Assembly (NCBI GenBank): GCA_946497955.1
Contig: CAMMMH010000004.1
Coordinates: 12,314 to 76,313, forward strand
Reading direction: 5' to 3'
DNA length: 64,000 nucleotides
From: an uncultured Mycoplasmatota bacterium
Lineage (GTDB): Bacteria; Bacillota_I; Bacilli_A; RF39; UBA660
Shown one piece after another: positions 8,174 through 25,841 of the stretch. The notes under the pieces were generated by a model, which saw nothing but the letters and a program-made list of their open reading frames with translations, ran no database searches and was not told the DNA's origin. Each line of letters opens with the position of its first letter. Positions within the stretch are counted from its first letter, which is position 1. The translations under genes and the position numbers were made by a program.

Positions 8174-8289
8174 TCTAAACTCATCTCAAGAGTAGTAATA
8201 ATTCTATATAATTTATCATTAATTAATTTTCTTAACTCATTATCACTAATAGATTTATCATATTCACATGAAACATTATAAGAACACAT
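8170..8289 (-). CDS. 39-aa ORF translationally coupled to the recombinase (not in the ORF track)
   Basis: GAGGAG SD, then ATG at 8289. Product MCSYNVSCEYDKSISDNELRKLINDKLYRIITTLEMSLE. Its TGA overlaps the recombinase ATG as ATGA. Confidence 0.4.
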   Translation of the reverse strand: MCSYNVSCEYDKSISDNELRKLINDKLYRIITTLEMSLE

Positions 8290-8338
8290 AAAAAATCACT
8301 CCTCATTAATCTATATTAAAAAAAGAAGTGATTTATTA

Positions 8339-9742: not shown

Positions 9743-9833
9743 TAGTCAATAGAAATGGTGGCTTTTACTTTAAAAATGTAACGAAGACTAACCAATATAA
9801 TAAAAGAAGTGATTTAGTACTTAAAAATAAATA

Positions 9834-10448: not shown

Positions 10449-10582
10449 AAATTCACCTCTGTTTAAAGATTTGTATCACTCTCTAATAAGACTTGCAAGC
10501 AATGTTGAAAGAAAAACACAGATATTGCATTTATCTATCTTGAATGATAATATAAAATTAATCTAGAAGAGAGTGTGTTGAT

Positions 10583-11326
10583 ATGTTAAAAAATATTGCA
10601 GGAACAACTATAAAAATAAAGTTCAAAGATGAAATGATAGAACTTCCAAAAAACGCAAAAAAACAAATTAATATTTTTTGGAAACAAAGTAAGGAAAGTA
10701 ATCCTAGTCTTTTTAATGGTGAACTAATTTGTGTAAGTGAATATAAGGAATCAAATGACTTAATAGAGATTACTTGTAAAAGAACATCTTATGCTCATCA
10801 TTTATATGATGAAAGAGTAGGACTACCTAAAGAATATGGGTGTCATAACTTAGTGGTAGGATGCCTATTAGAAACTAGTGATAATTATTATGTAATAGGG
10901 GAAATGACAAGTAATACTTCAGTTCCTAATTATCTACAAATACCAGGAGGTAATGTTGATAATACTGATATTAAAGAAGGTAGAGTAGATATATTAAATG
11001 CTCTAATAAGAGAATGTAGAGAAGAAGTAAATATTAATTTACAAGATAAAAATATGGTAGATAGTTTTGGAATAAAATATATAAGTCTACCAAATGAAAA
11101 ATCTAATGCTTACTTAATTATCGCTAAAGGTAATTTAAAAAAGACTAAAAATGAAATGCTTGAATACTACAAAGAATATTTAAAATACTTAAAAGATAAT
11201 AATTTAGAAGTAGAATTTTCTAACATACACTTTATAAATAAAAATAAAGCTCTAGAAGAATTAAATAACTTAAAAAATCCTAAAAGAAATTATTTAGAAG
11301 ATTTATTAGAAATAGATAGTAAATAA
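10583..11326 (+). CDS. NUDIX-family hydrolase (divergent Nudix box)
   Basis: 'IPGGNVDNTDIKEGRVDILNALIRECREEVNI' contains REUxEE (RECREE), with a longer-than-canonical spacer before it. Confidence 0.55.
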   Translation: MLKNIAGTTIKIKFKDEMIELPKNAKKQINIFWKQSKESNPSLFNGELICVSEYKESNDLIEITCKRTSYAHHLYDERVGLPKEYGCHNLVVGCLLETSDNYYVIGEMTSNTSVPNYLQIPGGNVDNTDIKEGRVDILNALIRECREEVNINLQDKNMVDSFGIKYISLPNEKSNAYLIIAKGNLKKTKNEMLEYYKEYLKYLKDNNLEVEFSNIHFINKNKALEELNNLKNPKRNYLEDLLEIDSK

Positions 11327-11339
11327 TAAAAAAAGATAG

Positions 11340-12662
11340 TTATTTTATATTTTTACTATCTTCTTTTTTAACAAATTGATGTCCTGCAGTTACTTCGATT
11401 GCTTTGTCAATAAAGTTATTAATATTCTCTTTATATAATAATAGTACTTTCTTAGTAGTTTCAATAACTTCTTCTTCCTCAATACATAAAAAATCTGCAA
11501 TTGATTCTGTAGAAAAGTATTTATTATCAACATAACCTAGTCTTAAACAAATAATAATTGCTTCTTTAACCGATAAAGTGTTAAGCACATCACTAAATTT
11601 TAAACTTTTCATAATATCTAATATTTTTATATAATCATCTTTTATTGATAAAGGCTGTGTTTTTTCATCAGTAGTGTTAACACTATGTTCTAAAGACATT
11701 CCATCTTCGGTATCTTGAACATTTCCTTTTTTACCTAAACTTGATAACATACTTCTCATTTTGGGCATAAGCCACCCATAAAATCTAGATGATTTATTTT
11801 TATCAAAATCATCATTTTTAACAGGAGTTTCCAAATCATATCCATATCTAGAATATAATAATTCTTTTTCACTATCTGAAAGTCTTGAAATAACGTCATT
11901 AATTTCTTCTTTACTATATTTATTAAAATATTCATATATATTTTTTAATTTTCTAGGCATTTTGCTTTCCTTCCTATCTCTAATTCTTTTTTCACTAATT
12001 TCATCTACAATTCCTAATTTAATTAATTCTTTTTTAATTCTAATTACATTTTTTTTAATTAATTCATATACATAATTGTGAGAAATTTTAAATTTTTTTG
12101 CAATTTCACTTTGAGTATATACTTTATCATCATTAAAGCCAAAATAAAGTGATATAATTTCTCTATCTCTATCAGGTAATTTATTAACTAGTTCCCTAAC
12201 TACTTTATTAGTATCATAGATTTCAAACTCTTCGACGAAACCAACAGTTTCATCAATTAGAGCATCCTCTAAGGTAAATTCCTTCACGTCACTATCATTT
12301 TTTAAGTATCCATTTAAACTTTTATTAGATATATGTTTTTTCTCTTTTTGCAAAAAATTATTAATTTCATATCTGATACACGTACCAGCATAAGTAGAAA
12401 AATTTATATTTTTTTCGATATCAAAAGTATCTACACCTTTTATTAATCCTAAAAAACCAACAGCTACAAGCTCTTCTTTATCATATGGATTATTATTATA
12501 TTTCTTTAACACAGTACTTAAAACAAGCCTAATGTTATGTGTAATGACTATTTCTCTAGCTTCTAAATCACCATTACGATATTTTTTTATATATTCAATA
12601 ACTTCATCATTTTTTAAAGGAGCAGGTAAATCACAAGAAATAAATAATTTGTTGTCTAACAT
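11340..12662 (-). CDS. sigma-70 family RNA polymerase sigma factor with ~210-aa C-terminal extension
   Basis: Region 2-like 'REIVITHNIRLVLSTVLKKY...ELVAVGFLGLIKGVDTFD'. Region 4-like 'DREIISLYFGF...TQSEIAKKFKISHNYVYELIKK'. The extension has two further region-4-like segments (SDSEKELLYSRYGYD; SVKEAIIICLRLGY...STESIADFLCI). Confidence 0.7.
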   Translation of the reverse strand: MLDNKLFISCDLPAPLKNDEVIEYIKKYRNGDLEAREIVITHNIRLVLSTVLKKYNNNPYDKEELVAVGFLGLIKGVDTFDIEKNINFSTYAGTCIRYEINNFLQKEKKHISNKSLNGYLKNDSDVKEFTLEDALIDETVGFVEEFEIYDTNKVVRELVNKLPDRDREIISLYFGFNDDKVYTQSEIAKKFKISHNYVYELIKKNVIRIKKELIKLGIVDEISEKRIRDRKESKMPRKLKNIYEYFNKYSKEEINDVISRLSDSEKELLYSRYGYDLETPVKNDDFDKNKSSRFYGWLMPKMRSMLSSLGKKGNVQDTEDGMSLEHSVNTTDEKTQPLSIKDDYIKILDIMKSLKFSDVLNTLSVKEAIIICLRLGYVDNKYFSTESIADFLCIEEEEVIETTKKVLLLYKENINNFIDKAIEVTAGHQFVKKEDSKNIK

Positions 12663-12728
12663 AATAACCTCCTTTAAATTTATATATACAATACCACAAA
12701 TATATTAGTTTTACAATATAAGTTTTTC

Positions 12729-12782
12729 TTGACGATTGAATACATATTCAACTATAATATAAATAGTTGAGTAAATATTCAA
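12729..12782 (+). promoter_or_regulatory. cad operon promoter with two ArsR/SmtB-type inverted-repeat operators
   Basis: -35 TTGACG (12729-34) and -10 TATAAT (12753-58). A perfect IR TTGAATA-CA-TATTCAA (12736-51) lies between them. A second IR TTGAGTA-AA-TATTCAA sits at 12767-82. Confidence 0.65.
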
Positions 12783-12816
12783 CCATAAACAAATAATATA
12801 AATAGGAAGTGATAAT

Positions 12817-13179
12817 ATGTCTAGAAACGAATTTTCATGTGATTGTAATATCATTCATAAGGAAGCAGTGGATAAGGTATTAAATAAAATGCCTTCAGAA
12901 AATACTTTTAATCATCTAGCAGATTTATTTAAACTAATAGGTGATACAACAAGATGTAGAATACTTTTTTCACTCGATCAAGACGAAATGTGTGTATGTG
13001 ACTTAGCCAATGTTTTAAATATGACTAAATCAAGTGTTTCTCATCAATTAGCAACCTTAAGAAGAAGTGGAATAGTTAAATGTAGAAGAAGTGGTAAAGA
13101 AGTATATTACACTCTAGATGATGACCATATTGTTAAATTATTTGAAATAGGACTAGAACATATTAATCATAAAGGATAG
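12817..13179 (+). CDS. cadC: ArsR/SmtB-family metalloregulator (CadC-like)
   Basis: N-terminal Cys pair 'CDC', the 'EMCVCDL' metal site and the wHTH 'KSSVSHQLATLRRSGIV'. It sits immediately upstream of a Cd/Zn-type P-type ATPase. Confidence 0.8.
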   Translation: MSRNEFSCDCNIIHKEAVDKVLNKMPSENTFNHLADLFKLIGDTTRCRILFSLDQDEMCVCDLANVLNMTKSSVSHQLATLRRSGIVKCRRSGKEVYYTLDDDHIVKLFEIGLEHINHKG

Positions 13180-13194
13180 AAAGAAGGAAAGAAT

Positions 13195-13419
13195 ATGAAA
13201 GATTATAAATTTAAAATAGAAGGATTAGACTGTGCTAACTGTGCTAACGAATTAGAAGAGTCACTAAGAAAGATTGACTTAATAGAAAATGTCTCTATTA
13301 GTTTTATGATGGAAAGACTTACTTTTAGTTGTAATGAAGATAACTTAAATAGTGCCTTAAAACAAATTAAAAAAACTATAAAAAGAGAAGAACCTGATGT
13401 TACAATTGAGGAGGTATAA
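13195..13419 (+). CDS. stand-alone heavy-metal-associated (HMA) domain protein
   Basis: 'GLDCANCANELE' CxxC ferredoxin-like fold motif. The ORF ends 2 nt before the ATPase ATG, which has its own GAGGAGG SD. Confidence 0.75.
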   Translation: MKDYKFKIEGLDCANCANELEESLRKIDLIENVSISFMMERLTFSCNEDNLNSALKQIKKTIKREEPDVTIEEV

Positions 13420-13421
13420 TT

Positions 13422-15275
13422 ATGACTAAAAAGATGAAGAGAAAGTTAATTAGGATTATTATATCTTTTATCTTATTAGTAATAGCATTTATCTTAAAAT
13501 TAGATAACACTATTATCAATAACATTTTATTTATTACATCGTACATAATAGTAGGTTATGACATCATCTTAAAAGCTTTAAGAAATATAACAAGAGGAAA
13601 GGTTTTTGATGAAAACTTCTTAATGACTATTGCCACTATAGGAGCCTTTTTTATAGGAGAGTTTCCTGAAGCAGTAGCAGTAATGCTTTTCTATCAAGTA
13701 GGAGAACTATTTCAAAGTTATGCTGTTGATAAATCAAGAAAATCAGTTTCAGAATTAATGGATATAAGACCAGATTATGCCAATCTTTATCAAAATAACA
13801 AGACTGAAAGAGTAGATCCTAATAAAGTCAAAGTTGGGGATATTATCTTAATAAAACCAGGAGAAAAAATACCTTTAGATGGTATAGTAGTAGAAGGTAA
13901 CTCTCATCTTAATACTCTTGCTTTAACAGGAGAATCTATGCCAAAAAGTGTAACTGAGACTGATGAAGTATTAAGTGGATGTATTAATAATGAAGGAATA
14001 CTAAAAGTTAAAGTAACTAAAGAGTTTGGTGAATCTACTGTTAGTAAAATCTTAGACTTAGTAGAAAATGCTAGTAGTAGAAAATCTAAATCAGAAAACT
14101 TTATCAGTAAATTTGCTAAATATTACACTCCAATAGTTGTAATAATCGCTATTCTTCTTGCATTTATTCCACCTATAGTATTAGATACTAACTTTAAAAC
14201 TTGGATATATCGTGCTTTATCATTCTTAGTTGTTTCATGTCCTTGTGCCTTAGTAATATCAATACCCCTAAGTTTTTTTGCAGGAATAGGTGCGTCATCT
14301 AGAATAGGAGTTTTAGTAAAGGGTAGTAACTATTTAGAAGCCCTTGCAAACACTGAAATAGTTGTATGTGATAAAACAGGAACTCTAACAGAAGGAATCT
14401 TTAAAGTCCAAAAAGTTAATGCTATAGATTACTCAAAGGAAGATTTATTAAAATATACAAGTTATGCAGAGAACTATTCTAACCATCCTATCGCCTTATC
14501 TATTAAAGAAGCTTATGGTAAAGATATTAATGAAAAAATAGTTACTAAAACTAAAGAACTTAAAGGTAAAGGAGTTATTGCCAAAGTAGATTCTAAAGAA
14601 GTTCTAGTAGGTAATGAGAAATTAATGGAAGAGTATAATATTGACTATAAAAAGAGTAATGATATAGGAACTGTTATTTATATCGCTATTGATAAAACTT
14701 TCGCCGGATCTATCACTATCTCTGATAAGATAAAAGAAGATGCTTATAAAGCAGTTAAAGAATTTAGAAGAAATAATGTTAAGAAAATAGTAATGTTAAC
14801 AGGAGATAGAGAAGAAATTAGTAAAAATGTCTCAAAAGAATTAAAGCTAGATAATTACTATGCTGAACTACTTCCTCAAGACAAAGTTAAAAAAGTAGAA
14901 TCTTTAATGCAAGAAAAAAGTATAGATGGTAAACTAGTATTTATAGGAGATGGTATTAATGATGCTCCTGTTCTTGCCTTGTCAGATATTGGTGTAGCGA
15001 TGGGAGGACTTGGTAGTGATGCCGCAATAGAAGCAGCAGATATTGTTATTATGACAGATGAGCCATCTAAACTAGCAAGTGCCATTAAAATAAGTAAGAA
15101 GACGATGCAAATAGTTAAAGAAAATATAATATTCGCTATCACAGTTAAAATACTTGTCTTACTACTAAGTGCTATAGGTATCGCTTCAATGTGGGCAGCC
15201 GTATTCGCCGATGTAGGTGTTTCTGTTATCGCCATTATTAATGCTTTAAGAATATTAAGAGTAAAGAAGGATTAG
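13422..15275 (+). CDS. cadA: P1B-2-type (Cd/Zn/Pb) heavy-metal-translocating P-type ATPase
   Basis: 'SCPCALVIS' (CPC), 'DKTGTLT', 'GDGINDAP' and the TM8 motif 'ADVGVSVIAIINALRIL' (DxG, typical of the Zn/Cd subgroup). Confidence 0.85.
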   Translation: MTKKMKRKLIRIIISFILLVIAFILKLDNTIINNILFITSYIIVGYDIILKALRNITRGKVFDENFLMTIATIGAFFIGEFPEAVAVMLFYQVGELFQSYAVDKSRKSVSELMDIRPDYANLYQNNKTERVDPNKVKVGDIILIKPGEKIPLDGIVVEGNSHLNTLALTGESMPKSVTETDEVLSGCINNEGILKVKVTKEFGESTVSKILDLVENASSRKSKSENFISKFAKYYTPIVVIIAILLAFIPPIVLDTNFKTWIYRALSFLVVSCPCALVISIPLSFFAGIGASSRIGVLVKGSNYLEALANTEIVVCDKTGTLTEGIFKVQKVNAIDYSKEDLLKYTSYAENYSNHPIALSIKEAYGKDINEKIVTKTKELKGKGVIAKVDSKEVLVGNEKLMEEYNIDYKKSNDIGTVIYIAIDKTFAGSITISDKIKEDAYKAVKEFRRNNVKKIVMLTGDREEISKNVSKELKLDNYYAELLPQDKVKKVESLMQEKSIDGKLVFIGDGINDAPVLALSDIGVAMGGLGSDAAIEAADIVIMTDEPSKLASAIKISKKTMQIVKENIIFAITVKILVLLLSAIGIASMWAAVFADVGVSVIAIINALRILRVKKD

Positions 15276-15277
15276 AT

Positions 15278-17458
15278 ATGAAGAAAATAGTTTTAAAAAT
15301 AGGGGGAATGACTTGTAGTGCCTGTTCATCAGGCCTTGAAAAATATTTAAACAAACAAGTTGGAATAACTAGTGCCACTGTTAATCTAGTCTTATCTATC
15401 GCTACTGTTTACTATGAAAATATAACAGTCAAAGATATCGAAAGATATATTAAAGAAGCAGGTTTTACCAGTCTAGGCGAATTTAAGGGAATAGAAGATA
15501 AAGTCACTAATGAAACTGATAAGATAAAATTAATTCTTTTAGGACTATTAATTATCTTTATGATGTATATATCTATAGGAAATATGTTAAACCTCCCAAG
15601 CATCCCTTATCTTAATCACAAATATCCTCTTGTTTTATCCACAACTCTGTTGATAATTACTTTCGTATATTTAATTTATGGACTAGATATTATAAAAAGT
15701 GGTATAAAGAATTTACTCCATAAGATGCCTAACATGGATACCCTTGTTATGTTTAGTGTCATCTTTAGCTTTCTCTATAGTCTTTATAGTTACATAAATA
15801 TCTTACAAGGAAATAACACTTTACTTCATAATTTATATTTTGAATCTACTTGTATGGTAATTTACTTTATTAAACTAGGTAGAGTATTAGAAGACTCTAG
15901 TAAAGATAAAACTAAAGATGCTATTAGAAAGTTAGTACAAATAACTCCTACTTATGCCACTATAAAAAAGAATGATAAAGAGTTAAAAGTAACTATCGAT
16001 GAAGTAGAAGTAGGAGATACATTAATTTGTAAAGCAGGAGAAAAAATAGCTGTTGATGGCACTGTTACTAAGGGTAAAACCTATGTTAATGAAAGTTTTA
16101 TCACAGGAGAAAGTGCCCCAGTTTTAAAAGAAAAAGGTTCAAATGTCATCGCTGGTTCTATTAGTTATGACGGACTTATTGAATATACTGCCAAGAAAAT
16201 AGGGAAAGACTCTACCATCTCAGAAATAGTAAAACTAGTAGTAGAATCTACTAATACCAAAACTAAAATACAACGTCTTGCCGACAAAGTAAGTGGCATC
16301 TTTGTTCCTGTTATTTTAATAATTGCCTTCTTAACATTTATAATCCAGATACTTATAGGTCTATCTTTAGAAGAATCACTAATTCATATGGTAACAGTCT
16401 TAGTAGTCGTTTGTCCTTGTGCCTTAGGACTTGCCGTACCCCTTGTTGTAGTTGTAAGTAATGGACTTTGTGCTAAGAAAGGCTTATTCTTAAGAAATAG
16501 TGAAGTCTTAGAGAAAGCTAAAGATATTGATACTATTGTCTTTGATAAAACAGGAACCCTTACCTATGGTAATTTAAAAGTCTTTAAAACTTATAATTAC
16601 TCTAACTATAAAGATAATGATTTAATTAATATTGTATCTAATATAGAAAATAACTCCTCTCATCCTATAAGCACAGCTTTTAAAGTTAAAAAGAAGTTAG
16701 TTGTAACTGATTTTAAAACTTTAGATGGTAAAGGGGTAAAAGCAAGTATTAATAACAAAGTTTATTATTTAGGAAATAATACTTTATTAAAAGATTTAAA
16801 AATAAAAGATAATCATAAAGAAGACTATAATAATTTAATAAATAATGGCTGTAGTATTATCTATGTAATAGAAGAAGGTATTGTTATTGGTCTAATAGGT
16901 GTAAAAGATATAGTTAGATCTAATATAAAAAATGTTATAACTGAGTTTAAAGATAATAATATAGAAGTAATTATGTTAACAGGAGATAATGAAGTAACTG
17001 CTGAGTCTATTGCAAAAGAGTTAGGTATAACTAAAGTAATATCTAATGTCTTACCAAAGAAAAAAGCCTCTGTTATTAAAGACTTAACTAACAAAGGTAA
17101 AAAAGTAATAATGGTAGGAGATGGTATTAATGATGCCCCTGCTTTAGTAAATGCCACTATTGGTATAAGTGTTAATGATGGGACAGATGTTGCTATGGAC
17201 TCTGCTGATGTCATCCTTATGAATAACGATATTTCTAATATTTTAGACCTTATTAAAATAAGTAAAAAAGCATATCTCATCATTAAAGAAAACTTATTCT
17301 GGGCTTTCTTCTATAATTTACTTATGATACCTATCGCTATTGGATTATTAGAAAACTATGGAATAAGCATGAGTCCTATGTTTGCAAGTATTGCTATGAC
17401 TATAAGTAGTTTAACTGTAGTTATAAACTCTTTAAGACTTAGTAAAATGAATTTGTAA
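15278..17458 (+). CDS. copA: P1B-1-type copper-translocating P-type ATPase
   Basis: N-terminal HMA 'GMTCSACSSGLE', 'VCPCALGLA', 'DKTGTLT', 'GDGINDAP', TM7 'FYN' and TM8 'AMTISS' (MxxSS), which are Cu(I) signatures. Confidence 0.85.
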   Translation: MKKIVLKIGGMTCSACSSGLEKYLNKQVGITSATVNLVLSIATVYYENITVKDIERYIKEAGFTSLGEFKGIEDKVTNETDKIKLILLGLLIIFMMYISIGNMLNLPSIPYLNHKYPLVLSTTLLIITFVYLIYGLDIIKSGIKNLLHKMPNMDTLVMFSVIFSFLYSLYSYINILQGNNTLLHNLYFESTCMVIYFIKLGRVLEDSSKDKTKDAIRKLVQITPTYATIKKNDKELKVTIDEVEVGDTLICKAGEKIAVDGTVTKGKTYVNESFITGESAPVLKEKGSNVIAGSISYDGLIEYTAKKIGKDSTISEIVKLVVESTNTKTKIQRLADKVSGIFVPVILIIAFLTFIIQILIGLSLEESLIHMVTVLVVVCPCALGLAVPLVVVVSNGLCAKKGLFLRNSEVLEKAKDIDTIVFDKTGTLTYGNLKVFKTYNYSNYKDNDLINIVSNIENNSSHPISTAFKVKKKLVVTDFKTLDGKGVKASINNKVYYLGNNTLLKDLKIKDNHKEDYNNLINNGCSIIYVIEEGIVIGLIGVKDIVRSNIKNVITEFKDNNIEVIMLTGDNEVTAESIAKELGITKVISNVLPKKKASVIKDLTNKGKKVIMVGDGINDAPALVNATIGISVNDGTDVAMDSADVILMNNDISNILDLIKISKKAYLIIKENLFWAFFYNLLMIPIAIGLLENYGISMSPMFASIAMTISSLTVVINSLRLSKMNL

Positions 17459-17531
17459 TTGACAAAATAACACATCATGTTGACACTCAATAATTCTTAT
17501 GATATGTTGATAAAAATGGAGATGTAAATCA

Positions 17532-18224
17532 ATGATAGAAAAAGTAAAATATCAAGTAAGTGAATTATTAAATAAAGATAAATCTGGCCACGGAATGGAT
17601 CATATAAATAGAGTTTTAGAGTTATCTTTGAGATTTGCTGAAAAAGAAAAAGCAAATAAAGATATTGTTTCTCTAATAGCATTACTTCATGATGCAGATG
17701 ATTATAAGCTATTTGGAATGGACAATGCTAGAAATTTAACTAATACTAAAAGAATTATGAATGATTGTAATATAGATAAAAACATACAAGACCAAGTATG
17801 TTGTGCTATTAAAAATATTGGATATAGAAAAAGACTAAAAGGTTACGCACCAACAACACTAGAAGGAAAAATAGTATCTGATGCTGATATGTGTGATGCA
17901 TTAGGTGCCCATGGTATTTTAAGAGATTATAAGTATGTTATGGAATATGGAAAACCATTTTTTGACAAGAAAATATTTCCAACTGAAGATACAAATAAAG
18001 ATAAATCTCTTGAGAAATGTTCTAATAGTTGTGTATGTCACATATTTGAGAAAATATTAAAACTTAAATATTTAATGTTAACAGAGTCAGGAAAAGAAGA
18101 AGCTAAATCAAGGCATCAAATTGTTGTAGAATTTTTATATCATTTTTTTGATGAAGAAAATGTTCCAGAATGGACAGAGTATTTAAATGAGTATTTGAAA
18201 AATATAAATTATATGTTAAACTAA
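17532..18224 (+). CDS. HD-domain phosphohydrolase
   Basis: 'GHGMDHINRV' and 'ALLHDADDYK' supply the H...HD metal ligands. Confidence 0.7.
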   Translation: MIEKVKYQVSELLNKDKSGHGMDHINRVLELSLRFAEKEKANKDIVSLIALLHDADDYKLFGMDNARNLTNTKRIMNDCNIDKNIQDQVCCAIKNIGYRKRLKGYAPTTLEGKIVSDADMCDALGAHGILRDYKYVMEYGKPFFDKKIFPTEDTNKDKSLEKCSNSCVCHIFEKILKLKYLMLTESGKEEAKSRHQIVVEFLYHFFDEENVPEWTEYLNEYLKNINYMLN

Positions 18225-18244
18225 TAGGCACAGGAGGTACATTT

Positions 18245-18466
18245 ATGGAAAAACTTACACAGGAAGAACTTAATATAATATTAGAAAATATTAATCATAA
18301 TATGGCAGAATATGATAAAGATATAAAAAGAAAAATGGAACACTCAGACAAAGTAGAATTAGATATGTATAAAGTAAATCCTGCATTTTTGAATCAAGGA
18401 AATACTGATACAGCTAGTAATACACATAGTAGAGTGAAAAGAATAAAACATAGAAGTAGATTTTAG
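18245..18466 (+). CDS. hypothetical protein (73 aa)
   Basis: ORF with a GGAGG SD. No recognisable motif. Confidence 0.35.
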   Translation: MEKLTQEELNIILENINHNMAEYDKDIKRKMEHSDKVELDMYKVNPAFLNQGNTDTASNTHSRVKRIKHRSRF

Positions 18467-18557
18467 TCTATTTCTTTTTTTGTTATGAGTAAAACAAAAC
18501 TGCTTGACATTAAGTTACTCCAGTGATACTGTTATATCAAATGAGGAGGTAACAAAT

Positions 18558-19076
18558 ATGAAAAGATTAAATTCATTCCTTTATACCAAAGGGAAATTTG
18601 GTAAAGGTTGTATAAGAAGTGTTGATACTAACAATGAATATTTATATTCTAAGGCAATGTATAAGACAAAAATAAAAAAAGAAGATCTTCCAGATGATTA
18701 TATTGAATTTAGGAGTGGCACTATACGATATATGACAGGATATTTAAAAACAAGTGGAGTTGTTGATATAGACTATACATATTTTTTAGAAAATCATATA
18801 TTTAAAGATGATTATTTATATATATCGTATAAAGGAAAACTAAAGAAAGAAAAAACGTCATATGGAAGAGAACGTATTGTTAATTATGATATCTGTATCT
18901 GTGATAATGATATTATACCTATTTTACATGCTATAGAAAAGAATTCTAATATTAATATAGATAAAGTTAAAGAAAAAATATATTATAAAGTATCTTGGTA
19001 TAAAGAAAATTGTAAAGATGAATATACAAGAGAATTTGGTAATAGAGATATAGATATATTTGAAGAATATAAATAA
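18558..19076 (+). CDS. hypothetical protein (172 aa)
   Basis: Start moved to ATG 18558 after a GAGGAGG SD. No recognisable motif. This is the last gene before the right end of element 1. Confidence 0.45.
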   Translation: MKRLNSFLYTKGKFGKGCIRSVDTNNEYLYSKAMYKTKIKKEDLPDDYIEFRSGTIRYMTGYLKTSGVVDIDYTYFLENHIFKDDYLYISYKGKLKKEKTSYGRERIVNYDICICDNDIIPILHAIEKNSNINIDKVKEKIYYKVSWYKENCKDEYTREFGNRDIDIFEEYK

Positions 19077-19107
19077 CTTAGTAATTAATTTTTACTAGGT
19101 TATTTTT
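19077..19107 (+). terminator. rho-independent terminator just inside the right att arm
   Basis: 8-bp stem CTTAGTAA / TTACTAGG (one G-U pair), 7-nt loop, followed by TTATTTTT. Confidence 0.55.
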
Positions 19108-19110
19108 CGT

Positions 19111-19130
19111 GTCTTAACAACACTCAACCA
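19111..19130. repeat. right terminal inverted repeat / att arm of element 1
   Basis: GTCTTAACAACACTCAACCA matches the reverse complement of 5367-5386 at 17/20 positions. Confidence 0.8.
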
Positions 19131-19549
19131 ACTCTTTGTCTCATACCACCAGATAAACTCCTAGGAAACTTATCAATAAACTCACTTAAACCATAAGTAT
19201 CAAGTAATTTTAAGACATAAGCTTTATCTTCCATACTTACTTTACCTTTTAATTTAAGACCCAATAGACAGTTATCTAAAATATTAAGCCAAGGAAATAA
19301 ACTATCTTTTTGAAGCATATAACCAAGCTTTATATCTTCCTTAGAAAACTTTATATCACCACTACTTTTTGTTTCTAAATTAGCAAGTATTGATAACAGT
19401 GTACTTTTACCACATCCACTTGGTCCTACAATTACAATAAACTCTCCCTCATTAACACTAAGATTGATATCTTTAATCGCTTCTATTTCACCACTTTTAT
19501 CTTGATAATTTTTAGATAAATGTGTAATTTCTAAAATATCATTTTTCAT
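19124..19549 (-). pseudogene. ABC transporter ATP-binding protein, N-terminal part (split by element 1)
   Basis: Walker A 'GPSGCGKST', a Q-loop and the signature 'LSGGMRQRV'. Two element-derived codons later (V-G) there is a stop. Walker B is missing and is found at 5031-5366. Confidence 0.9.
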
Positions 19550-20089
19550 ACATCAAGTCACTAAATGGAACTTTACTATCTAATTCTCCTGCATTAATCA
19601 TAATATCTTGTAAGTGGTCAAATTCTTCTTCACTAAACTCAGTTGTTTTAGACCATGCATCAATAGATCTATAACGCTCTACAATCTTTGTTAAATCATC
19701 AATTGATGTATCAGGGAATTGATCTATTATCGCTTCTGCTATCTTCTCATCAGAACTATTATGAACAAAGTCAATTCCCTTTTGAATCGCTTTCTCAAAG
19801 TTATCAATTAGTTCTTTGTTCTCATTTAAATAACTATCTCTTGCAAAGAAAGCAGTATAAGGAACAACACCACCAAGTTCACCTAAACTTGCAACAACAT
19901 AACCATAACCTTCTTTTTCTAACTCTAAAGCATTAGGTTCAAACAAAGCGACAAAGTCACCTGTCCCTCCAATAAAGGCACTACTCATAGCAGAGAAAGC
20001 TACAGAAGTATCAATATTAACATCCTTCTTAGGGTCAATTCCAGCATCGCTTAAAGCCCATTCAAGAGTCATTTCAGGCATACCACCTC
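19539..20089 (-). pseudogene. NMT1/ThiY/SsuA-like ABC substrate-binding protein, C-terminal part (split by element 2)
   Basis: The frame is open from the junction: (stop)GGMPEMTLEWALSDAGIDPKKDVNID.... There is no signal peptide or N-terminal lobe. The complementary N-terminal part is at 23084-23548. Confidence 0.85.
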
Positions 20090-20108
20090 ATCGGTAGTTA
20101 AACTTATA
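20090..20108. repeat. left terminal inverted repeat / att arm of element 2
   Basis: Contains GTTAAACTTATA (20097-20108), the reverse complement of 23085-23096. Confidence 0.8.
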
Positions 20109-20153
20109 ATACTTTTATTTATTAAAATACATAAAATTAATTAGGTGGTTAAA

Positions 20154-20255
20154 TTGAAAATTATAAATATATTTAATGAAAATGGTAAGACATTACAACA
20201 AATAATAGAAGAGTTTTTAATAGACTATTATATGGAAAGTGAATATGAAAAGTAA
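20154..20255 (+). CDS. 33-aa ORF overlapping the recombinase start (not in the ORF track)
   Basis: AGGTGG SD, then TTG at 20154. Product MKIINIFNENGKTLQQIIEEFLIDYYMESEYEK. Its stop at 20253-55 lies inside the first codons of the recombinase ORF. Confidence 0.35.
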   Translation: MKIINIFNENGKTLQQIIEEFLIDYYMESEYEK

Positions 20256-21807
20256 AACATTTAATGTCGCTTTTTATATTAGATTATCTCGTGAAGATGG
20301 TGACAACTTAGAAAGTGAAAGTATCATAAATCAAAGAGATTTATTACATATATTTTTAGAGAAAACAGAAGAAAAATTAGTTTATATAGATGAATATGTT
20401 GATGATGGTTTTACTGGTTCTAATTTTGATAGACCTTCTTGGAAAAGATTAATTAAAGATTTAGAAAATAATAAAGTTAATACTATTATAACTAAAGATT
20501 TATCTCGTATGGGTAGAGATTATATCTCTATGGGGGAATATATTGAAAGAATATTCCCTGAGAAAGGTATAAGATATATTGCCATAAACGATGATATTGA
20601 TACTCTCCATGAAACACCAGGATTAGAGTTTTTACAATTTAAATTAATGTTTAATGATTACTATTTAAAAGATACATCTAAAAAGATTAGAAAAGTTTTG
20701 AGATCCAAAAAGGAAAGAGGAGAGTTTCTAGGTTTTAAAGCCCCTTATGGTTATCTAAAAGACAAGAGTGATAAACATAAACTAATAGTCGATGAAAACG
20801 TTAGACCAATTATTAAAAAAATGTTTCTTTTAGCATATACCGGTAAAAGCCCAAAACAAATAGCAGATATCTTCTCAAAAGAACATATTCCTACACCTAG
20901 TGTTTATGCTAATCTAAATCGTGGTATAAATAATCCTACTTATAATATATGGTGCCCTAGGACTATTGAAGAAATGCTTACTAACGAAACATACATTGGT
21001 AATATGACTCAAGGAAGAAGAAAAAAGTTAAATTATAAGTCTAAAAAAGAAATTAGAACACCGAAAGAACAATGGATAATAAAAGAAAATACTCATGAAG
21101 CGATTATTGATAAAAAGGTATTTGATACAGTAGGAGAATTACTTAAGAAAAACAAAAATAAACCTACCGGCAATAATATTATGTTACTTTCTGGTTTTAT
21201 GAAATGTAGAGAGTGTAATCATAAAATAGGAATAAATAAAAGTAGTGATGGTAAAAGATACTACACACATTGTTCTTATTATACAGCCCATTCTAAATAT
21301 GGTTTATGTACTCCTCATAGCCTTAATTATAAAAAACTAGAAAATCTCGTTTTAGAGGAGATTAGAAAACTGTGTAAAGAGTATGTAGATAGTACTACTT
21401 TTAAAGAAAGGATAGAAGAAGCTAGAAAGAAAAATGATATTAAGGTTAAAAAACAAGTAGAAATTAATATATTAGAAAAAAAGATTAGGACTAACAATGG
21501 TTATATAGACAAAGTATATGAAGATAAGTTAAATGGTAATATCGATATAGAGATGTTTAATCGTCTAACTATTAAATATAAAGATGAAATAATCTCTTGG
21601 AAAAAAAGAATAGAATCTATTGAAAAGGAAATTTCCACTCTTGATAAAGTAGATACTGATAAAGAAAGAAAAGATATACTTGAAAAAGTAAATGAATATC
21701 TAGCCTTAGAAAAACCAACTAGAGCCTTACTAGTAAACTTAATTGATAAGATACTTATAAGTGAAGATAAAACAATAGAAATTCACTATAAATTCAAACT
21801 ATATTAA
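20245..21807 (+). CDS. large serine recombinase
   Basis: 'VAFYIRLSREDGD' contains the catalytic Ser. Also present are 'SRMGRD', 'APYGY', a Zn-ribbon-like 'CRECNH...CSYYTAHSKYGLC' and a coiled-coil tail. It is homologous to, but clearly divergent from, the 6614-8173 recombinase. GTG 20239 is an alternative start. Confidence 0.9.
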   Translation: MKSKTFNVAFYIRLSREDGDNLESESIINQRDLLHIFLEKTEEKLVYIDEYVDDGFTGSNFDRPSWKRLIKDLENNKVNTIITKDLSRMGRDYISMGEYIERIFPEKGIRYIAINDDIDTLHETPGLEFLQFKLMFNDYYLKDTSKKIRKVLRSKKERGEFLGFKAPYGYLKDKSDKHKLIVDENVRPIIKKMFLLAYTGKSPKQIADIFSKEHIPTPSVYANLNRGINNPTYNIWCPRTIEEMLTNETYIGNMTQGRRKKLNYKSKKEIRTPKEQWIIKENTHEAIIDKKVFDTVGELLKKNKNKPTGNNIMLLSGFMKCRECNHKIGINKSSDGKRYYTHCSYYTAHSKYGLCTPHSLNYKKLENLVLEEIRKLCKEYVDSTTFKERIEEARKKNDIKVKKQVEINILEKKIRTNNGYIDKVYEDKLNGNIDIEMFNRLTIKYKDEIISWKKRIESIEKEISTLDKVDTDKERKDILEKVNEYLALEKPTRALLVNLIDKILISEDKTIEIHYKFKLY

Positions 21808-21861
21808 TGAAAAATATAGGTAAATATGGTAAAATATTAACAAGAGAGAAGGTGGTATCTT

Positions 21862-23049
21862 ATGAAATGTATTTTAATGAATAAAAATACTGAAGTGTTA
21901 GTATGTGAGTATAATACTAATTTAAATGTATTTGATAAAATGTATGAGATTATTAATATTGATTATGCACCATTAATATTAAAAAAATACTATGAGGAAG
22001 ATAAAGATACATTAGCATTATTAAGAAGATTAACTGAATGGTTTAAAGGAAGAGGTATCCCATCGTGGAGAGATAAAATAGATTTACTATTACATCGTCT
22101 TAACATTGAAACTGCTGAGGAATTATTAGATAAAGCTTTTGGTTTATCTTTATCAGATCAATACTGGATAAAACCTTATGATAGTAATTTGAAGTATGAT
22201 GATATTAACTTTTTTGATAATGATTTTGATTATGCTGAATTTTTAGAAGCTTCACTTTCACTTAATAGTAAGATAGTAAAAAAAGAAACTTCTCTTAAAA
22301 CACCTAATAATACTACTGATGGTATGTTAAAAAAAGCATGGATTATTGAAAATGGTACGAGATATTTATTAAAAGGTGGTTATAAAAACGAAATATTACA
22401 ACCATTTAATGAGGTTTTAGCATCTATGATATGTGATAGATTAGGTTTTAATCATGTCCCTTATACCTTAGATGTATATAAAGATACCGTAGTATCTAAA
22501 TGTCCTTGTTTTATAACTAAAGATACCGAACTTATTACCGCTTATCAAATAAAAAACAATATGAAAAGATATGATAGTGAAGAAGATTACGAAGAATATA
22601 TTAAATGCCTTGAAGAAAATGGTATTCCTAATGTTAGGGAAAAAATAGAAAATATGTATATCTTAGATTTTCTTATAATGAATGAAGATAGACACTTAAA
22701 TAATTTTGGTATTATAAGAGATGTTAATACTCTAAAATGGTTAGATGTCGCTCCTATATTTGATAATGGTATGGCTTTAAATGTTCAAAGTTATGATGAT
22801 GAAGAATTAATCATATCAGGTATGGGTAGATTATTTTATGAGATTAAGCCCTTTGATGAAATAATCAAAGTAGTTCATAATATTAAAAGAATAGATGTAT
22901 CAAAACTATCAGATATACCAGAAGAATTTGATAAACTATTACATAAGTATCAAAGTATTACCAAAATGTCTGATAAAAGAATATATAGATTATGTGTTCT
23001 TTTAAATAGACAAATAAATAAACTAAAGAAAATAATTGAGGAAGCCTAA
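21862..23049 (+). CDS. HipA-like serine/threonine kinase domain protein
   Basis: 'LDFLIMNEDRHLNNFGII' is the HipA catalytic-loop type (D.H..N.). 'APIFDNGMAL' is the second conserved segment. No HipB-like HTH gene is adjacent. Confidence 0.65.
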   Translation: MKCILMNKNTEVLVCEYNTNLNVFDKMYEIINIDYAPLILKKYYEEDKDTLALLRRLTEWFKGRGIPSWRDKIDLLLHRLNIETAEELLDKAFGLSLSDQYWIKPYDSNLKYDDINFFDNDFDYAEFLEASLSLNSKIVKKETSLKTPNNTTDGMLKKAWIIENGTRYLLKGGYKNEILQPFNEVLASMICDRLGFNHVPYTLDVYKDTVVSKCPCFITKDTELITAYQIKNNMKRYDSEEDYEEYIKCLEENGIPNVREKIENMYILDFLIMNEDRHLNNFGIIRDVNTLKWLDVAPIFDNGMALNVQSYDDEELIISGMGRLFYEIKPFDEIIKVVHNIKRIDVSKLSDIPEEFDKLLHKYQSITKMSDKRIYRLCVLLNRQINKLKKIIEEA

Positions 23050-23083
23050 GATTAGGTTTCCTTTAATATCAAGGGAAAATACG

Positions 23084-23548
23084 TTATAAGTTTAACAGGA
23101 GATGTCCCGCTCTACCACCAATAATGGTCTTACCAACTAAATCATCAAGTGTAAAATCTTTAATATCTTCACGTGCTACAATAAATGAACCATCTTTCTG
23201 AGTTAATCTTGCAAAAGTCTTAAGATAATCTTTTTCACCACCATTATATACATAAATAGTCGCTTCACTTCCTGCAAAACCAACATCAGCATCTCCTGCA
23301 AGTACCGCTGCACTTACTTTATCCGCCCCATTTGCAAGACTAAGTTCAATATCAATTCCCACATCTTCAAAATAACCTTCTTCAATCGCTACATACATAG
23401 GTGCATAGAAAATAGAGTGTGCTACTTCAGCAAGTCTTACAGTCTCTAAATCCTTACTATCATCCTTCTTATTAAAGTTAAATAATACAGCACAAGCTCC
23501 TAAAAATATAACTAAAATAACACCAATATAAATAATTGTCTTTTTCAA
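23084..23548 (-). pseudogene. NMT1/ThiY/SsuA-like ABC substrate-binding protein, N-terminal part (split by element 2)
   Basis: The signal/lipoprotein-like N-terminus 'VILVIFLGACAV' is followed by 'RLAEVAHSIFYAPMYVAIEEGYF'. After ...TIIGGRAG it runs 6 element-derived codons (HLLLNL) to a stop. Confidence 0.85.
23085..23104. repeat. right terminal inverted repeat / att arm of element 2
   Basis: Contains TATAAGTTTAAC (23085-23096), the reverse complement of 20097-20108. Confidence 0.8.
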
Positions 23549-23678
23549 ACTAAAATCCTCCTTTCAGTTCAAAGTATTATATGTAATTAATTTATATTGG
23601 CTACACTCTATCAAAAATAAGTTGCAGTAGATAGTAACATATGGTAAAATATGGCTAAAGAAGTAGGAGTATATTATT

Positions 23679-24149
23679 ATGAACAGTAACATTTATAGTG
23701 ATAGAGATATTAAACTAACAGATAATATCTTAAAAATAGGTTATGCGACCATTAGTCTTTCAAGTGTTTCAAGTGTCCATACATTTCCAGTCCCTAGACA
23801 TTCTCTTTTAGCAGGTCTAAAAGAATGGTTCTATGGTTTAATATTTATGATAATAATTTGTGCTATCTTTAGACAAATATCTATATTAGGAGATATTTAC
23901 ATTCTTACTATCTTTATTTTAATAGGTTATAATATATATGAACATAGAAAAGTCTATTTAGGCTTAGAAATATGTACTACTGGAGGTCAAAGCTATAAGA
24001 TTAAATCAGAAGATATTGTTTTAATTACAAAAATAGAGAGGAATTTAACTGAATTTATGGAAGAGAATAATCCTGGTTATAACATAAATGTAAATAACAG
24101 TATTATAAACAATGGTAATAACAATAAAAATATGGTGGTGCATAAATAA
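23679..24149 (+). CDS. hypothetical membrane protein with Asn-rich tail
   Basis: Two central hydrophobic helices (FYGLIFMIIICAIF; IYILTIFILIGY). C-terminus 'NINVNNSIINNGNNNKN'. An extended -10 (TGGTAAAAT) lies upstream. Confidence 0.5.
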   Translation: MNSNIYSDRDIKLTDNILKIGYATISLSSVSSVHTFPVPRHSLLAGLKEWFYGLIFMIIICAIFRQISILGDIYILTIFILIGYNIYEHRKVYLGLEICTTGGQSYKIKSEDIVLITKIERNLTEFMEENNPGYNINVNNSIINNGNNNKNMVVHK

Positions 24150-24418
24150 TGATTAATAATAGTATTATAAATATAGGAGATAACAACATCAATACAATTA
24201 CTAATAATATAGATTATGACAAAATATCTGAAGAATTAAGAATACTCCTAGACCATTATAAAGATGAAATCATAAAAGAAGCTTTAATATATAGCAAGAA
24301 CAAAGATAAAAATAAACTAATTAGTTGTTTAAAGAAACTATCAAAAGAAGCTTTAGAGATAATAAAACATTTATCTTTAACAACTCTAGAAAAAATAATA
24401 GAACAAAATTTATTTTAA
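24149..24418 (+). CDS. hypothetical protein, translationally coupled to the previous ORF
   Basis: TAATG overlap with the upstream stop. The N-terminus 'MINNSIINIGDNNIN' repeats the upstream protein's C-terminal motif. Confidence 0.45.
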   Translation: MINNSIINIGDNNINTITNNIDYDKISEELRILLDHYKDEIIKEALIYSKNKDKNKLISCLKKLSKEALEIIKHLSLTTLEKIIEQNLF

Positions 24419-24511
24419 AATAAACAAGCATATACGAGTTTTCGTAAACTTAACCTAAAAGCTTGTTTTTTTATAATTATTATATATAATAAATGTAACT
24501 GGAGGTAATTT

Positions 24512-24796
24512 ATGAATATACAAGTATTAAATGAACTTATGAGATTAAATGGTATTCCAAGTTATTTTCAATTATCAAAAGAAACTAACATTCCTTATAC
24601 AACTTTATTAGACCTAGTAAGAGGTAAAGGAGAAAAGCTTAGCAACATAAAAACAATCGCTGACTTTCTAGGAGTTAAAATGTCTTACTTATTAGATGAA
24701 CCTAGAAAAATAATTACTATTAATGAGCGAAATAATGTTGTTATTGAAAAGGAAAATGGCTATAACTCAGTACTATCTAATTTACTTTCTAATTAA
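24512..24796 (+). CDS. HTH (XRE-like) DNA-binding protein
   Basis: 'QLSKETNIPYTTLLDLVRGKGEKLSNIKTIADFLGVKMSYLL' is a helix-turn-helix pattern. Confidence 0.5.
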   Translation: MNIQVLNELMRLNGIPSYFQLSKETNIPYTTLLDLVRGKGEKLSNIKTIADFLGVKMSYLLDEPRKIITINERNNVVIEKENGYNSVLSNLLSN

Positions 24797-24830
24797 AACT
24801 ATGATAAAATAAGACTGGATGGTGATTAAC

Positions 24831-25841
24831 ATGAGTTTTTTCAGTAAATTAAAAGATAAATTTATAAAAAAAGAAGAAAAAGAACCTAAAGAAGAGAAGG
24901 AAAGCTTAGAAGTCTATGATAAAGGACTTACTAAAAGTAGAAATACTTTCTCATCACGTCTTTTAGATTTAACTAAACGCTATAATAAGATTAATGAAGA
25001 ATACTTTGAAGAGTTAGAAGAAATATTGATTATGGCTGATATTGGTGTTAATACTGTTATGAACTTTATGGACAAATTAAGAAAAAGAGTAAAAGAAGAA
25101 AAGATAACAGACCCAGAATTTTTAAAAGAGGTCATAGTAGATGAATTATTTATTATCTATGTAAGTGGAGAAGTATTATCTACTAATTTAAAAAGAAGTG
25201 ACTCTAATCCTACAGTTTATTTATTTGTAGGCGTTAATGGTGTAGGTAAGACTACCACTATCGCTAAGCTTGCCAGTAAAGAAAAAGAGAAAAACAGAAA
25301 AGTTCTTTTAATAGCAGGAGATACCTTTAGAGCCGGAGCGACTAAACAATTAAAAGAGTGGGCAGAAAGAATTGGCGTAGACTTCTATGGAAAACATGAA
25401 GGAGTAGACCCTGCTAGTGTTATTTATGAAGGATTAGAATATGCCATAAATAATGATATTGATACAGTTTTAATAGATACAGCAGGAAGACTTCAAAATA
25501 AAACTAACTTAATGATGGAACTAGAAAAGATTAATAGAGTAATTAAAAAGGTAATAGATAGAGCCCCAGATGAAACTCTCCTTGTAATAGATGCCACAAC
25601 AGGACAAAATGGTATAAGCCAAGCGAAAGCTTTTAAAGAAATAACAGACCTAACAGGAATTATTCTAACTAAACTAGATGGAACTGCTAAAGGTGGAATA
25701 GTTCTAGCGATTAAAGAAGAAGTAAACCTACCTGTTAAATATATAGGATTAGGTGAAACTGCTAAAGACTTACAAGAGTTTGATATCGAAAAATATATTT
25801 ATAGTCTATTTAAAGACTTTATGGAGGATAAAAATGAGTAA
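24831..25841 (+). CDS. ftsY: signal recognition particle receptor FtsY
   Basis: 'FVGVNGVGKTTTIAKLA', 'DTAGRLQNK' and 'TKLDGTAKGG' SRP-GTPase motifs after an acidic N-terminal region. Start placed at ATG 24831. Confidence 0.9.
   Translation: MSFFSKLKDKFIKKEEKEPKEEKESLEVYDKGLTKSRNTFSSRLLDLTKRYNKINEEYFEELEEILIMADIGVNTVMNFMDKLRKRVKEEKITDPEFLKEVIVDELFIIYVSGEVLSTNLKRSDSNPTVYLFVGVNGVGKTTTIAKLASKEKEKNRKVLLIAGDTFRAGATKQLKEWAERIGVDFYGKHEGVDPASVIYEGLEYAINNDIDTVLIDTAGRLQNKTNLMMELEKINRVIKKVIDRAPDETLLVIDATTGQNGISQAKAFKEITDLTGIILTKLDGTAKGGIVLAIKEEVNLPVKYIGLGETAKDLQEFDIEKYIYSLFKDFMEDKNE

Follow-up and report, generated by a model that had tools for sequence, protein, structure and literature searches.

Organization of the element

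The window analyzed here comprises 64,000 nucleotides (nt) of contig CAMMMH010000004.1 (assembly GCA_946497955.1, positions 12,314 to 76,313 of the forward strand) and comes from a gut bacterium of low GC content, an uncultured member of the Bacilli close to Candidatus Onthousia; positions are those of the window unless another locus is named. Its subject, Element 2, is a complete 3,020-bp insert in a transporter gene that encodes an ATP-binding cassette (ABC) substrate-binding protein. Between positions 20088 and 23106 lie three open reading frames (ORFs), all on the plus strand: a 33-codon ORF, the gene of a large serine recombinase (LSR), which alone accounts for 52% of the element length, and the gene of a kinase of the HipA superfamily. 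Only about 180 nt of the element are non-coding. A previous reading made from the letters of the window without database searches (hereafter, the sequence-only reading) had proposed a recombinase element of about 3 kb at 20088 to 23106 and had considered it unusually small for an LSR element. The discrete element is real, and three ORFs in 3,020 bp are in agreement with the second statement; the ends had been placed slightly off, the true insert being 3,020 bp long with a CC core. Element 2 is a new, unusually compact version of the serine-recombinase integrative elements, with a cargo that belongs to a large, uncharacterized branch of HipA-fold kinases.

Boundaries and attachment sites

On the minus strand, Element 2 is flanked by host sequences that are the halves of a single gene, which Pfam recognizes as encoding an ABC substrate-binding protein of the NMT1/THI5 type. 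The N-terminal part (23106 to 23548, minus strand; Pfam NMT1) runs from a signal-peptide-like start to ...IIGGRAG and terminates six codons inside the element. The C-terminal part (19539 to 20087, minus strand; Pfam NMT1 and NMT1_2) runs from ...G-MPEMTLEW to the stop codon, is collinear with intact homologues of 329 to 331 amino acids and has a ratio of nonsynonymous to synonymous divergence (dN/dS) of 0.11 to 0.30. When 23106 to 23548 is joined to 19539 to 20087 via a single CC, the result is a 329-amino-acid protein, as seen intact in relatives.

The empty site reads GGCATACCA-CC-CGCTCTACCACC in the related loci L004 and L005, and the same sequence or a close variant of it occurs in L006. 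In BLAST comparisons, the identity of the left flank stops at 20087 and that of the right flank begins at 23106, so that the two flank homologies overlap by 2 bp. It is this CC overlap that gives the insert its length of 3,020 bp, and the overlap, together with the empty sites of the relatives, identifies the crossover as CC and not TC. Empty-site comparison with L004 to L006 also delimits attL (20065 to 20109, no strand assigned), which consists of a host arm, the CC crossover at 20086 to 20087 and an element arm, TCATCGGTA followed by GTTAAACTTATAA; it is kept in L003, L007, L015 and L008. By the same comparison, attR (23084 to 23130, likewise strandless) consists of an element arm, TTATAAGTTTAAC followed by AGGAGATGT, the CC crossover at 23106 to 23107 and a host arm that starts with CGCTCTACCACC. 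The CC is kept at the crossover in all eight attR-arm copies found in other genomes.

The attP site assembled from the two element arms, TATAAGTTTAAC-AGGAGATGT-CC-TCATCGGTA-GTTAAACTTATA, is a symmetric 44-bp sequence with equal arms of 21 bp (12+9 / CC / 9+12). When the arms are compared as inverted copies, 16 of the 21 positions match in the element of the window and 19 of the 21 in that of L015. The corresponding junction sequence of attP is AACAGGAGATGTCCTCATCGGTAGTT, and the restored attB is GGCATACCACCCGCTCTACC. The ends also carry a perfect terminal inverted repeat of 13 nt (20097 to 20109 versus 23084 to 23096), whose presence had been noted before with a length of 12 bp. By itself the repeat is statistically unremarkable, as inverted pairs of 11 nt or more number 28 in the 3.4 kb of AT-rich DNA around the element; what gives it weight is the symmetric placement about the breakpoints, together with the conservation in relatives.

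In the sequence-only reading, the attP core was TC, a candidate that the empty sites rule out. A TC-based deletion (8 / TC / 7) would leave an intact ORF of 330 amino acids with an extra Gly codon and, since the TC and CC versions both restore the reading frame, the wrong core could not be detected from the sequence alone. The protein junction changes accordingly from GGRAG/GGMPEM, as first proposed, to GGRAG/GMPEM, with one glycine fewer; each of the 120 intact binding-protein homologues retrieved (92 to 96% identical, 329 to 331 amino acids) has the sequence GGRAGGMPEM. The insertion had also been called in frame, a term that is meaningless for an insert of 3,020 bp. From the comparison of sites, we consider it likely that the recombinase cuts at CC and joins the symmetric attP with an attB made of the codons of the Gly-rich loop. 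Integration splits the binding-protein gene, and precise excision is predicted to rebuild it.

The large serine recombinase

The gene at 20245 to 21807 (plus strand) encodes a complete recombinase of 520 amino acids, as had been recognized from its translation, with the catalytic Ser15 in a YIRLS motif. Its Pfam domains are the resolvase catalytic domain (PF00239, E=3.6e-19), the recombinase domain (PF07508, E=3e-21) and the zinc ribbon (PF13408, E=3e-11), and the protein matches the integrase family phrog_95 of PHROGs with E=1e-90. In the alignment with related recombinases, R13-L14-S15 is invariant. The dN/dS of 0.14 to 0.21 indicates that the gene is under purifying selection.

Among solved structures, the protein comes closest in sequence to the catalytic domain (2mhc, E=2e-25) of TnpX, the recombinase of Tn4451. 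For TnpX, which works at a 2-bp core, no directionality factor is required (reviewed in PMC5704250). By analogy with TnpX, the recombinase of Element 2 would integrate and excise without a separate directionality factor. Apart from the catalytic domain, the features shared with Tn4451 and Tn4453 are the 2-bp crossover core, the very short flanking repeats, the insertion within a gene, an expected circular intermediate and a -10 hexamer at one end. Different from Element 2, which has 3.0 kb and no mobilization module, Tn4451 is larger and carries mobilization (MobV relaxase) and resistance genes.

Distribution and mobility

One genome per species was scanned, which gave 80 loci encoding relatives of the kinase, all of them in genome bins of uncultured gut "Bacilli" or "Tenericutes", including Candidatus Onthousia. 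The unit of recombinase and kinase occurs at the identical site of the binding-protein gene in seven further loci (at least seven other species). The element is 3,066 bp long in L003, 3,010 bp in L007 and 3,017 bp in L015; in L008 it reaches about 3.9 kb with one extra gene for a 213-amino-acid protein, and the copies in L009, L011 and L016, which have the same right junction, are cut by contig ends. Gene order and the spacer of 54 to 55 nt from recombinase to kinase are fixed in all copies, and the host protein of L011 is only 63 to 65% identical. In L008, the extra gene (172 to 813 of that locus) separates attL from the small ORF; Pfam gives no match for it.

Pairwise synonymous divergence (dS) distinguishes two flank haplotypes, each of which is found with an occupied and with an empty allele: L003 is paired with L004, and L007 with L006. 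The presence of both alleles on both haplotypes implies at least two recombinase-mediated gains or precise losses. On these sequence comparisons, Element 2 is probably an intact, minimal integrative element that is moved by site-specific recombination.

The very small size and the lack of transfer or replication genes would also suit the immobile remains of what was once a larger prophage or conjugative element, and other arrangements of recombinase and kinase do lie at the end of larger inserts (L060). Nevertheless, the purifying selection on the recombinase, the interleaved occupied and empty alleles and the presence of the same 3.0-kb architecture in several species, with both attachment sites intact and symmetric, argue that the element is not a deletion remnant. 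No copy of the pair is inside a larger prophage: the pair makes up the entire 3.0-kb element in the window, L003, L007 and L015, and the 3.9-kb one in L008. In addition, PHROGs assigns to the element only the integrase and a family of unknown function, with no prophage genes, and close relatives of the recombinase are absent from the viral contigs of IMG/VR. A leftover of this kind is therefore extremely improbable, and a prophage remnant in particular was discarded as a candidate on the basis of the multi-species copies, the empty and occupied alleles, the purifying selection and the absence of phage genes.

Some points weigh against the view of Element 2 as a mobile, TnpX-like element. Mobility is read from patterns of presence and absence alone, and neither an excised circle nor the attP junction was found in the metagenome contigs of the Joint Genome Institute (JGI). 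The 3-kb element has no transfer genes for passage between cells, and family-library scans detected in none of its ORFs a relaxase domain, as would be expected of an integrative mobilizable element. The likeness to the behavior of TnpX is an analogy only, with a C-terminal DUF4368 match of 16.6 bits that is under the cut-off of 25. Moreover, Element 2 is strictly site specific (a single site in 8 genomes), unlike Tn4451, whose target specificity is low (PMC5704250).

Element 2 offers a naturally minimal LSR system with fully defined sites (44-bp attP, attB and CC core) and several diverged natural variants; it could help to establish what excision demands of such a recombinase and could serve as a compact tool for integration.

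The small ORF and the left end

The first ORF of the element, already reported as a 33-codon frame, spans 20154 to 20255 (plus strand), starts with TTG behind the ribosome-binding site AGGTGG and overlaps the start of the recombinase gene by 11 nt. The core of its peptide (LKIINIFNENGKTLQQIIEEFLIDYYMESEYEK) is kept in L003, L007, L008 and L015, which gives five variants with that of the window, and the changes in the DNA are mostly synonymous. It had no match in any of the family libraries searched, NCBIfam included. It may be an accessory factor or a regulator.

Small ORFs precede most of the other recombinase genes examined, at the same position, and some of their peptides are loosely similar. 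In particular, ORFs of 30 to 60 codons end at or overlap the starts of several unrelated recombinase genes (8170 to 8289 of the window, minus strand; about 5200 to 5375 of L077; about 8450 to 8620 of L031), and a loose pattern, F-[ND]-x-[ND]..L..[IL]IEE[FY]L, can be seen in some of them. Such short ORFs may encode an accessory or leader peptide that these recombinase genes have in common.

Just inside the left end, a perfect TATAAT hexamer (20105 to 20110, plus strand), read directly from the sequence, points towards the small ORF and the recombinase gene and is a candidate for a junction-dependent promoter. The corresponding -35 position lies 17 nt upstream, across the crossover, and has the sequence ACCACC in the integrated element; the predicted circle would have ATGTCC in the window, ATGACC in L015 and AAGACC in L007. 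End joining could in this way improve the promoter of the 33-amino-acid ORF and the recombinase, a suggestive but weak case that has a parallel in Tn4451, whose circle forms a promoter for tnpX (Lyras and Rood 2000, cited as reference 38 in PMC13023037). A -35 agreement of 3 to 4 out of 6 positions in AT-rich DNA counts against the idea. A search of 19000 to 24500 with Rfam gave nothing at E≤0.1, and a terminator scan returned 0 sites.

The kinase

The third gene (21862 to 23049, plus strand) encodes a CtkA-like Ser/Thr kinase of the HipA superfamily with 395 amino acids. Its features are an N-terminal subdomain, a Gly-rich loop (TTDGMLKK), K171, the catalytic loop D276-R-H-x-x-N281 and the Mg-binding D301. 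The motifs from which the protein had been called HipA-like, NEDRHLNNFG of the catalytic loop and APIFDNG, are encoded at 22681 to 22710 and 22750 to 22770. The assignment to the HipA superfamily, with intact catalytic residues, is upheld, and the closest solved relative is CtkA rather than HipA itself.

By sequence, this relative is CtkA of Helicobacter pylori (3akj, E=1e-9), with D276 and D301 aligned to D155 and D179 of CtkA. The HipA_C profile gives 31 to 43 bits for relatives at 36 to 45% identity, and PF07804 is precomputed for close homologues. The AlphaFold2 model, built from 43 sequences, has a pLDDT of 74.5 and a pTM of 0.78. In a Foldseek search with the predicted fold, the top 30 matches in the PDB are all CtkA, HipA or HipT (E=1e-7 to 8e-4, TM 0.35 to 0.56), at an alignment identity to the solved structures of 10 to 21% only. 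In the model, the full-length HipA alignments span about 460 columns, which shows the presence of an N-terminal HipA-like subdomain. NCBIfam contained no match for the kinase, and the fold search of BFVD gave only weak, uninformative ones.

Across 39 to 43 relatives (31 to 94% identity), no variation is seen at K158, K171, N281 and G303, and conservation reaches at least 90% at D276 and D301. The TT that immediately precedes the Gly-rich loop is conserved as well, and its T151 does not vary in the set of 43 relatives. A different picture is given by residues 21 to 60 (21922 to 22041 of the window), which are hypervariable, with 25 to 55% identity versus 90 to 100% for the remainder of the protein. 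The dS of this segment is saturated (1.3 to 1.9) and at least two old allelic types can be distinguished; the saturation indicates that old allelic cassettes have been exchanged by recombination. The kinase alleles recombine independently of the adjoining recombinase.

In the 54-nt spacer after the recombinase gene, a consensus scan that takes account of the TG before the hexamer locates an extended -10 (TGGTAAAAT; 21827 to 21835, plus strand) for the kinase gene. The claim that the kinase has an extended -10 of its own is in keeping with this motif and with the occurrence of a TGnTATAAT-type -10 about 30 nt upstream of nearly every kinase homologue, whatever its context. A generic promoter scan was not counted as evidence, since it showed no enrichment, with 25 promoter-like motifs where 24.3 were expected in shuffled sequence.

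The family comprises 3,719 clusters at 50% identity (E≤0.001), and relatives at 24 to 38% identity are found in 77 IMG/VR contigs, 8 phage records and 35 plasmids. With its roughly 3,700 clusters, no antitoxin gene and a swappable N-terminal cassette, this is a large, unstudied branch of stand-alone HipA-fold kinases in gut Firmicutes and mobile elements, to which the two-gene element gives a convenient entry point. One homologue (33% identity) occupies the end of a fragment of high GC content with two tyrosine recombinase genes (L087; MT839835.1, a 4.3-kb "phage" contig), which indicates that this kinase family is also cargo of elements with other kinds of recombinase.

Genomic neighbors of the kinase

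The sequence-only reading treated recombinase and kinase as a pair. The survey of genomes bears this out only in part: a profile search found an LSR within 1.5 kb of the kinase in 9 of the 80 species loci, and in none of the 77 viral ones. In seven of the nine, which represent the recombinase lineage of the window and three further ones, the recombinase gene is immediately upstream; in the remaining two, from a fourth lineage, it follows just downstream. The approximately four other lineages (L077, L044, L060 and L031/L052) are 27 to 40% identical to the recombinase of the window. Neighbor clustering identifies the recombinase as the only recurrent neighbor of the kinase (11 of 81 loci, immediately upstream in 8). 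About 65 of the 80 kinases have no adjacent recombinase or remnant of one, no small ORF and no other conserved neighbor; away from recombinase genes and their remnants, the kinase gene lies between housekeeping genes or beside type I restriction-modification or Fic genes.

Four loci (L012, L013, L014 and L071) retain 60 to 120 nt of the 3' end of a recombinase gene just upstream of the kinase, which implies that the kinase can outlive the recombinase. These remnants are at 1164 to 1224 of L012, about 6900 to 7000 of L013, 6885 to 6970 of L014 and 6858 to 6980 of L071, and L012 retains an attR-like arm at a different chromosomal site. Judging from its surroundings, the kinase gene looks like a self-contained, monocistronic unit. 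In accordance with what had been stated for a HipB-type antitoxin gene with a helix-turn-helix (HTH), none is inside the element, and no HTH, HipS or HIRAN partner was detected either in the element or as a conserved neighbor across the 81 loci. An HTH_26 gene near Element 2 was considered for the role of HipB and dismissed, because it also occurs in element-free genomes.

The recurrence of the recombinase beside the kinase, mostly just upstream, raises the question of whether the kinase could be coupled to recombination, either as the directionality factor or by phosphorylating the recombinase and so controlling excision. Known directionality factors are described in PMC12286644 as structurally diverse and often endowed with another function, which would leave room for such a role. 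Even so, the coupling is very unlikely: most of the kinases have no recombinase nearby, those of the 77 viral loci have no LSR within 1.5 kb, the kinase has its own candidate promoter and alleles that recombine independently of the recombinase, and TnpX-type enzymes need no directionality factor.

At L060 (8180 to 8604) and L061 (1005 to 2086), another recombinase, of 576 amino acids, has a kinase of this kind at the outer edge of its element, whose boundary coincides with the codons for the active-site STFK motif in a penicillin-binding protein gene. An intact penicillin-binding protein gene is just upstream of the kinase in L047, L048 and L058, where the two are adjacent, and one gene away in L018. 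A literature search pairing "large serine recombinase" with "HipA" returned no papers.

Possible role of the kinase

It is possible to hypothesize, with slightly less than an even chance of being right, that the kinase is a self-contained, toxin-type kinase serving a defense of the abortive-infection type. The N-terminal subdomain, autophosphorylation at the TT by the Gly-rich loop, or both would keep the kinase inactive, and a cue read by the hypervariable N-terminal cassette would switch it on. The active kinase would phosphorylate an essential translation factor and arrest growth, and the abortive-infection-type defense of the host would retain the element in the population.

Some indirect clues point in the direction of defense. 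The kinase core matches the PADLOC candidate PDC-M03A with E=8e-19; PDC-M03 is a pair of HipA and HIRAN (PMC13245101). A system with a HipA-family kinase, HipAD/DS-6, has been validated experimentally in phage defense, for which the catalytic residue and kinase activity are needed (PMC13092281). Both are two-gene systems, whereas Element 2 has no partner gene and no defense phenotype is known for its kinase family. In two relatives (P0247 and P0251, 44 to 45% identity), the kinase is fused to an N-terminal ToxN domain (type III toxin/abortive infection), either by a true fusion or by an artifact of gene calling. The type I restriction-modification or Fic genes mentioned above adjoin the kinase in several loci, and in Element 1, next door to Element 2, an AbiEii toxin gene is beside that element's own recombinase. 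The relatives of the kinase on phage contigs and plasmids and the old allelic cassettes at residues 21 to 60 lean the same way.

There are also observations that speak against a defense-type toxin. The HipA_C score of the kinase of the window, 29.7 bits, is just below the Pfam cut-off of 30.5. PDC-M03 normally requires its HIRAN/HipS partner, which is absent here. CtkA is described in its PDB title as a pro-inflammatory kinase of H. pylori and is not a known toxin of its own cell. Furthermore, the saturated dS of the variable segment does not allow a claim of recent positive selection.

In fold, Gly-rich loop, ATP-binding Lys, catalytic D-x-H-x-x-N and Mg-binding D, the kinase resembles HipA of hipBA, HipT of hipBST and CtkA, and it shares the N-terminal subdomain with HipA; different from HipA and HipT, it has no HipB or HipS partner. 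CtkA lies in mobile DNA, the plasticity zone of H. pylori, and acts on host cells. We do not expect the kinase of the window to have a host-cell role like that of CtkA. Hip-family kinases without a separate antitoxin are known in HipH/YjjJ and HipL (PMC8262856), but HipH carries an HTH at its N terminus and HipL contains HipS-like and HIRAN domains; the kinase of Element 2 has neither.

The chief alternative to the favored defense-type toxin is selfish addiction, in which the kinase would be a stable toxin with the sole function of punishing loss of the element by post-segregational killing and the antidote would be the 33-amino-acid peptide, the recombinase or autoregulation. Toxin-antitoxin modules, including those of hipBA type, are common maintenance cargo of integrative elements (PMC5704250), and in Element 2 the order from recombinase to kinase is fixed, with its 54- to 55-nt spacer, and is accompanied by a conserved small ORF. 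In the hipMP system, the partner of a short Hip kinase is a putative antitoxin that resembles a resolvase (Gerdes et al. 2021, PMC8262856); hipMP thus has in common with Element 2 that a Hip kinase is associated with a relative of the serine recombinases. However, HipM has 279 to 321 amino acids and its resolvase-like gene is downstream, whereas the kinase of Element 2 has 395 amino acids and a 520-amino-acid recombinase upstream, with attachment sites. In addition, the kinase is alone, and hence tolerated alone, in about 65 of the 80 loci, and an antidote-toxin pair would not survive in the four loci that lost the recombinase and kept the kinase. Taken together, these data make addiction rather unlikely.

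The neighboring Element 1 and the flanks

Beside Element 2, the ABC ATPase gene (19124 to 19549, 141 amino acids) ends right after LSGGMRQRV, and its C-terminal half resumes near 5368. Between the two halves lies Element 1, of about 13.8 kb (approximately 5369 to 19127), with a recombinase (6614 to 8173, minus strand) 35% identical to that of Element 2. Its cargo also includes a Bro-N protein, a 39-amino-acid ORF upstream of the recombinase gene, the AbiEii toxin gene (8339 to 9160), Sua5, ArsR/HMA and two P-type metal ATPases. In every relative examined, the interruption of the ATPase gene falls at an identical point, but with differing cargo (HD/NUDIX genes in L006). Taking the penicillin-binding protein gene into account as well, the recombinases of these genomes target the codons of highly conserved motifs: the Gly-rich loop of the binding protein, LSGG(Q) in the ATPase and SxxK in the penicillin-binding protein.

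Within one operon, two neighboring genes are both split at a conserved motif, which could indicate a reversible genetic switch, with Elements 1 and 2 retained because their excision and re-integration toggle the ABC transporter operon. Both split genes keep open frames and a low dN/dS (0.07 to 0.30 at a dS of up to 0.4; 0.09 to 0.21 for the 141-amino-acid ATPase fragment). Intervening elements that are not phages and have serine recombinases are also known, such as gin in gerE of Bacillus cereus (PMC5595907). Like gin, skin and SPbeta in spsM, Element 2 carries a serine recombinase, interrupts a coding sequence that precise excision would rebuild and has a small ORF adjoining the recombinase gene. 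Gin, skin and SPbeta, though, are fixed and are excised in sporulation via the directionality factors GirX and SprB, whereas Element 2 is polymorphic, targets a transporter gene and resides in a host not known to sporulate.

A switch is distinctly unlikely for further reasons. Many close relatives carry the binding-protein gene uninterrupted, so the insertion is not fixed; the ATPase is interrupted in every genome examined, so excision of Element 2 alone would not restore transport; and there is no sign of regulated excision and no developmental program known in the host. Recent insertion would also account for the low dN/dS, as would recombination with intact alleles, in line with the mosaic flanks. 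A switch-like role for Elements 1 and 2 is not needed to explain the data.

A broader proposal would hold either that recombinase and kinase form a functional unit, in which the kinase or the 33-amino-acid peptide controls when or in which direction recombination proceeds, or that Elements 1 and 2 are reversible switches that rebuild the transporter operon in a non-sporulating gut bacterium. It derives from the position of the kinase at the outer edge of the elements of its own and about four other recombinase lineages, from the small upstream ORFs and from the purifying selection on both split genes, and we consider it unlikely.

As regards the host, genetic code 4 was considered and set aside, since the long ORFs are intact under table 11. 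The flanks of Element 2 (19124 to 25841 of the window, compared with L003 to L016) are mosaic: the right flank, with the N-terminal half of the binding-protein gene, HTH_26 and FtsY, is nearest to L003 and L004 (dS 0.03 to 0.09), and the left flank, with the C-terminal half and the ATPase fragment, is nearest to L006, L007 and L015 (dS 0.12 to 0.22). Since the two flanks are closest to different relatives, there is a recombination breakpoint at the insertion or close to it. Between the binding-protein gene and HTH_26, at 23679 to 24418, the window has two small genes (a DUF6232-like one of 156 amino acids and one of 89 amino acids) where L004 and L005 have an EamA transporter gene, which marks this position as another variable spot.

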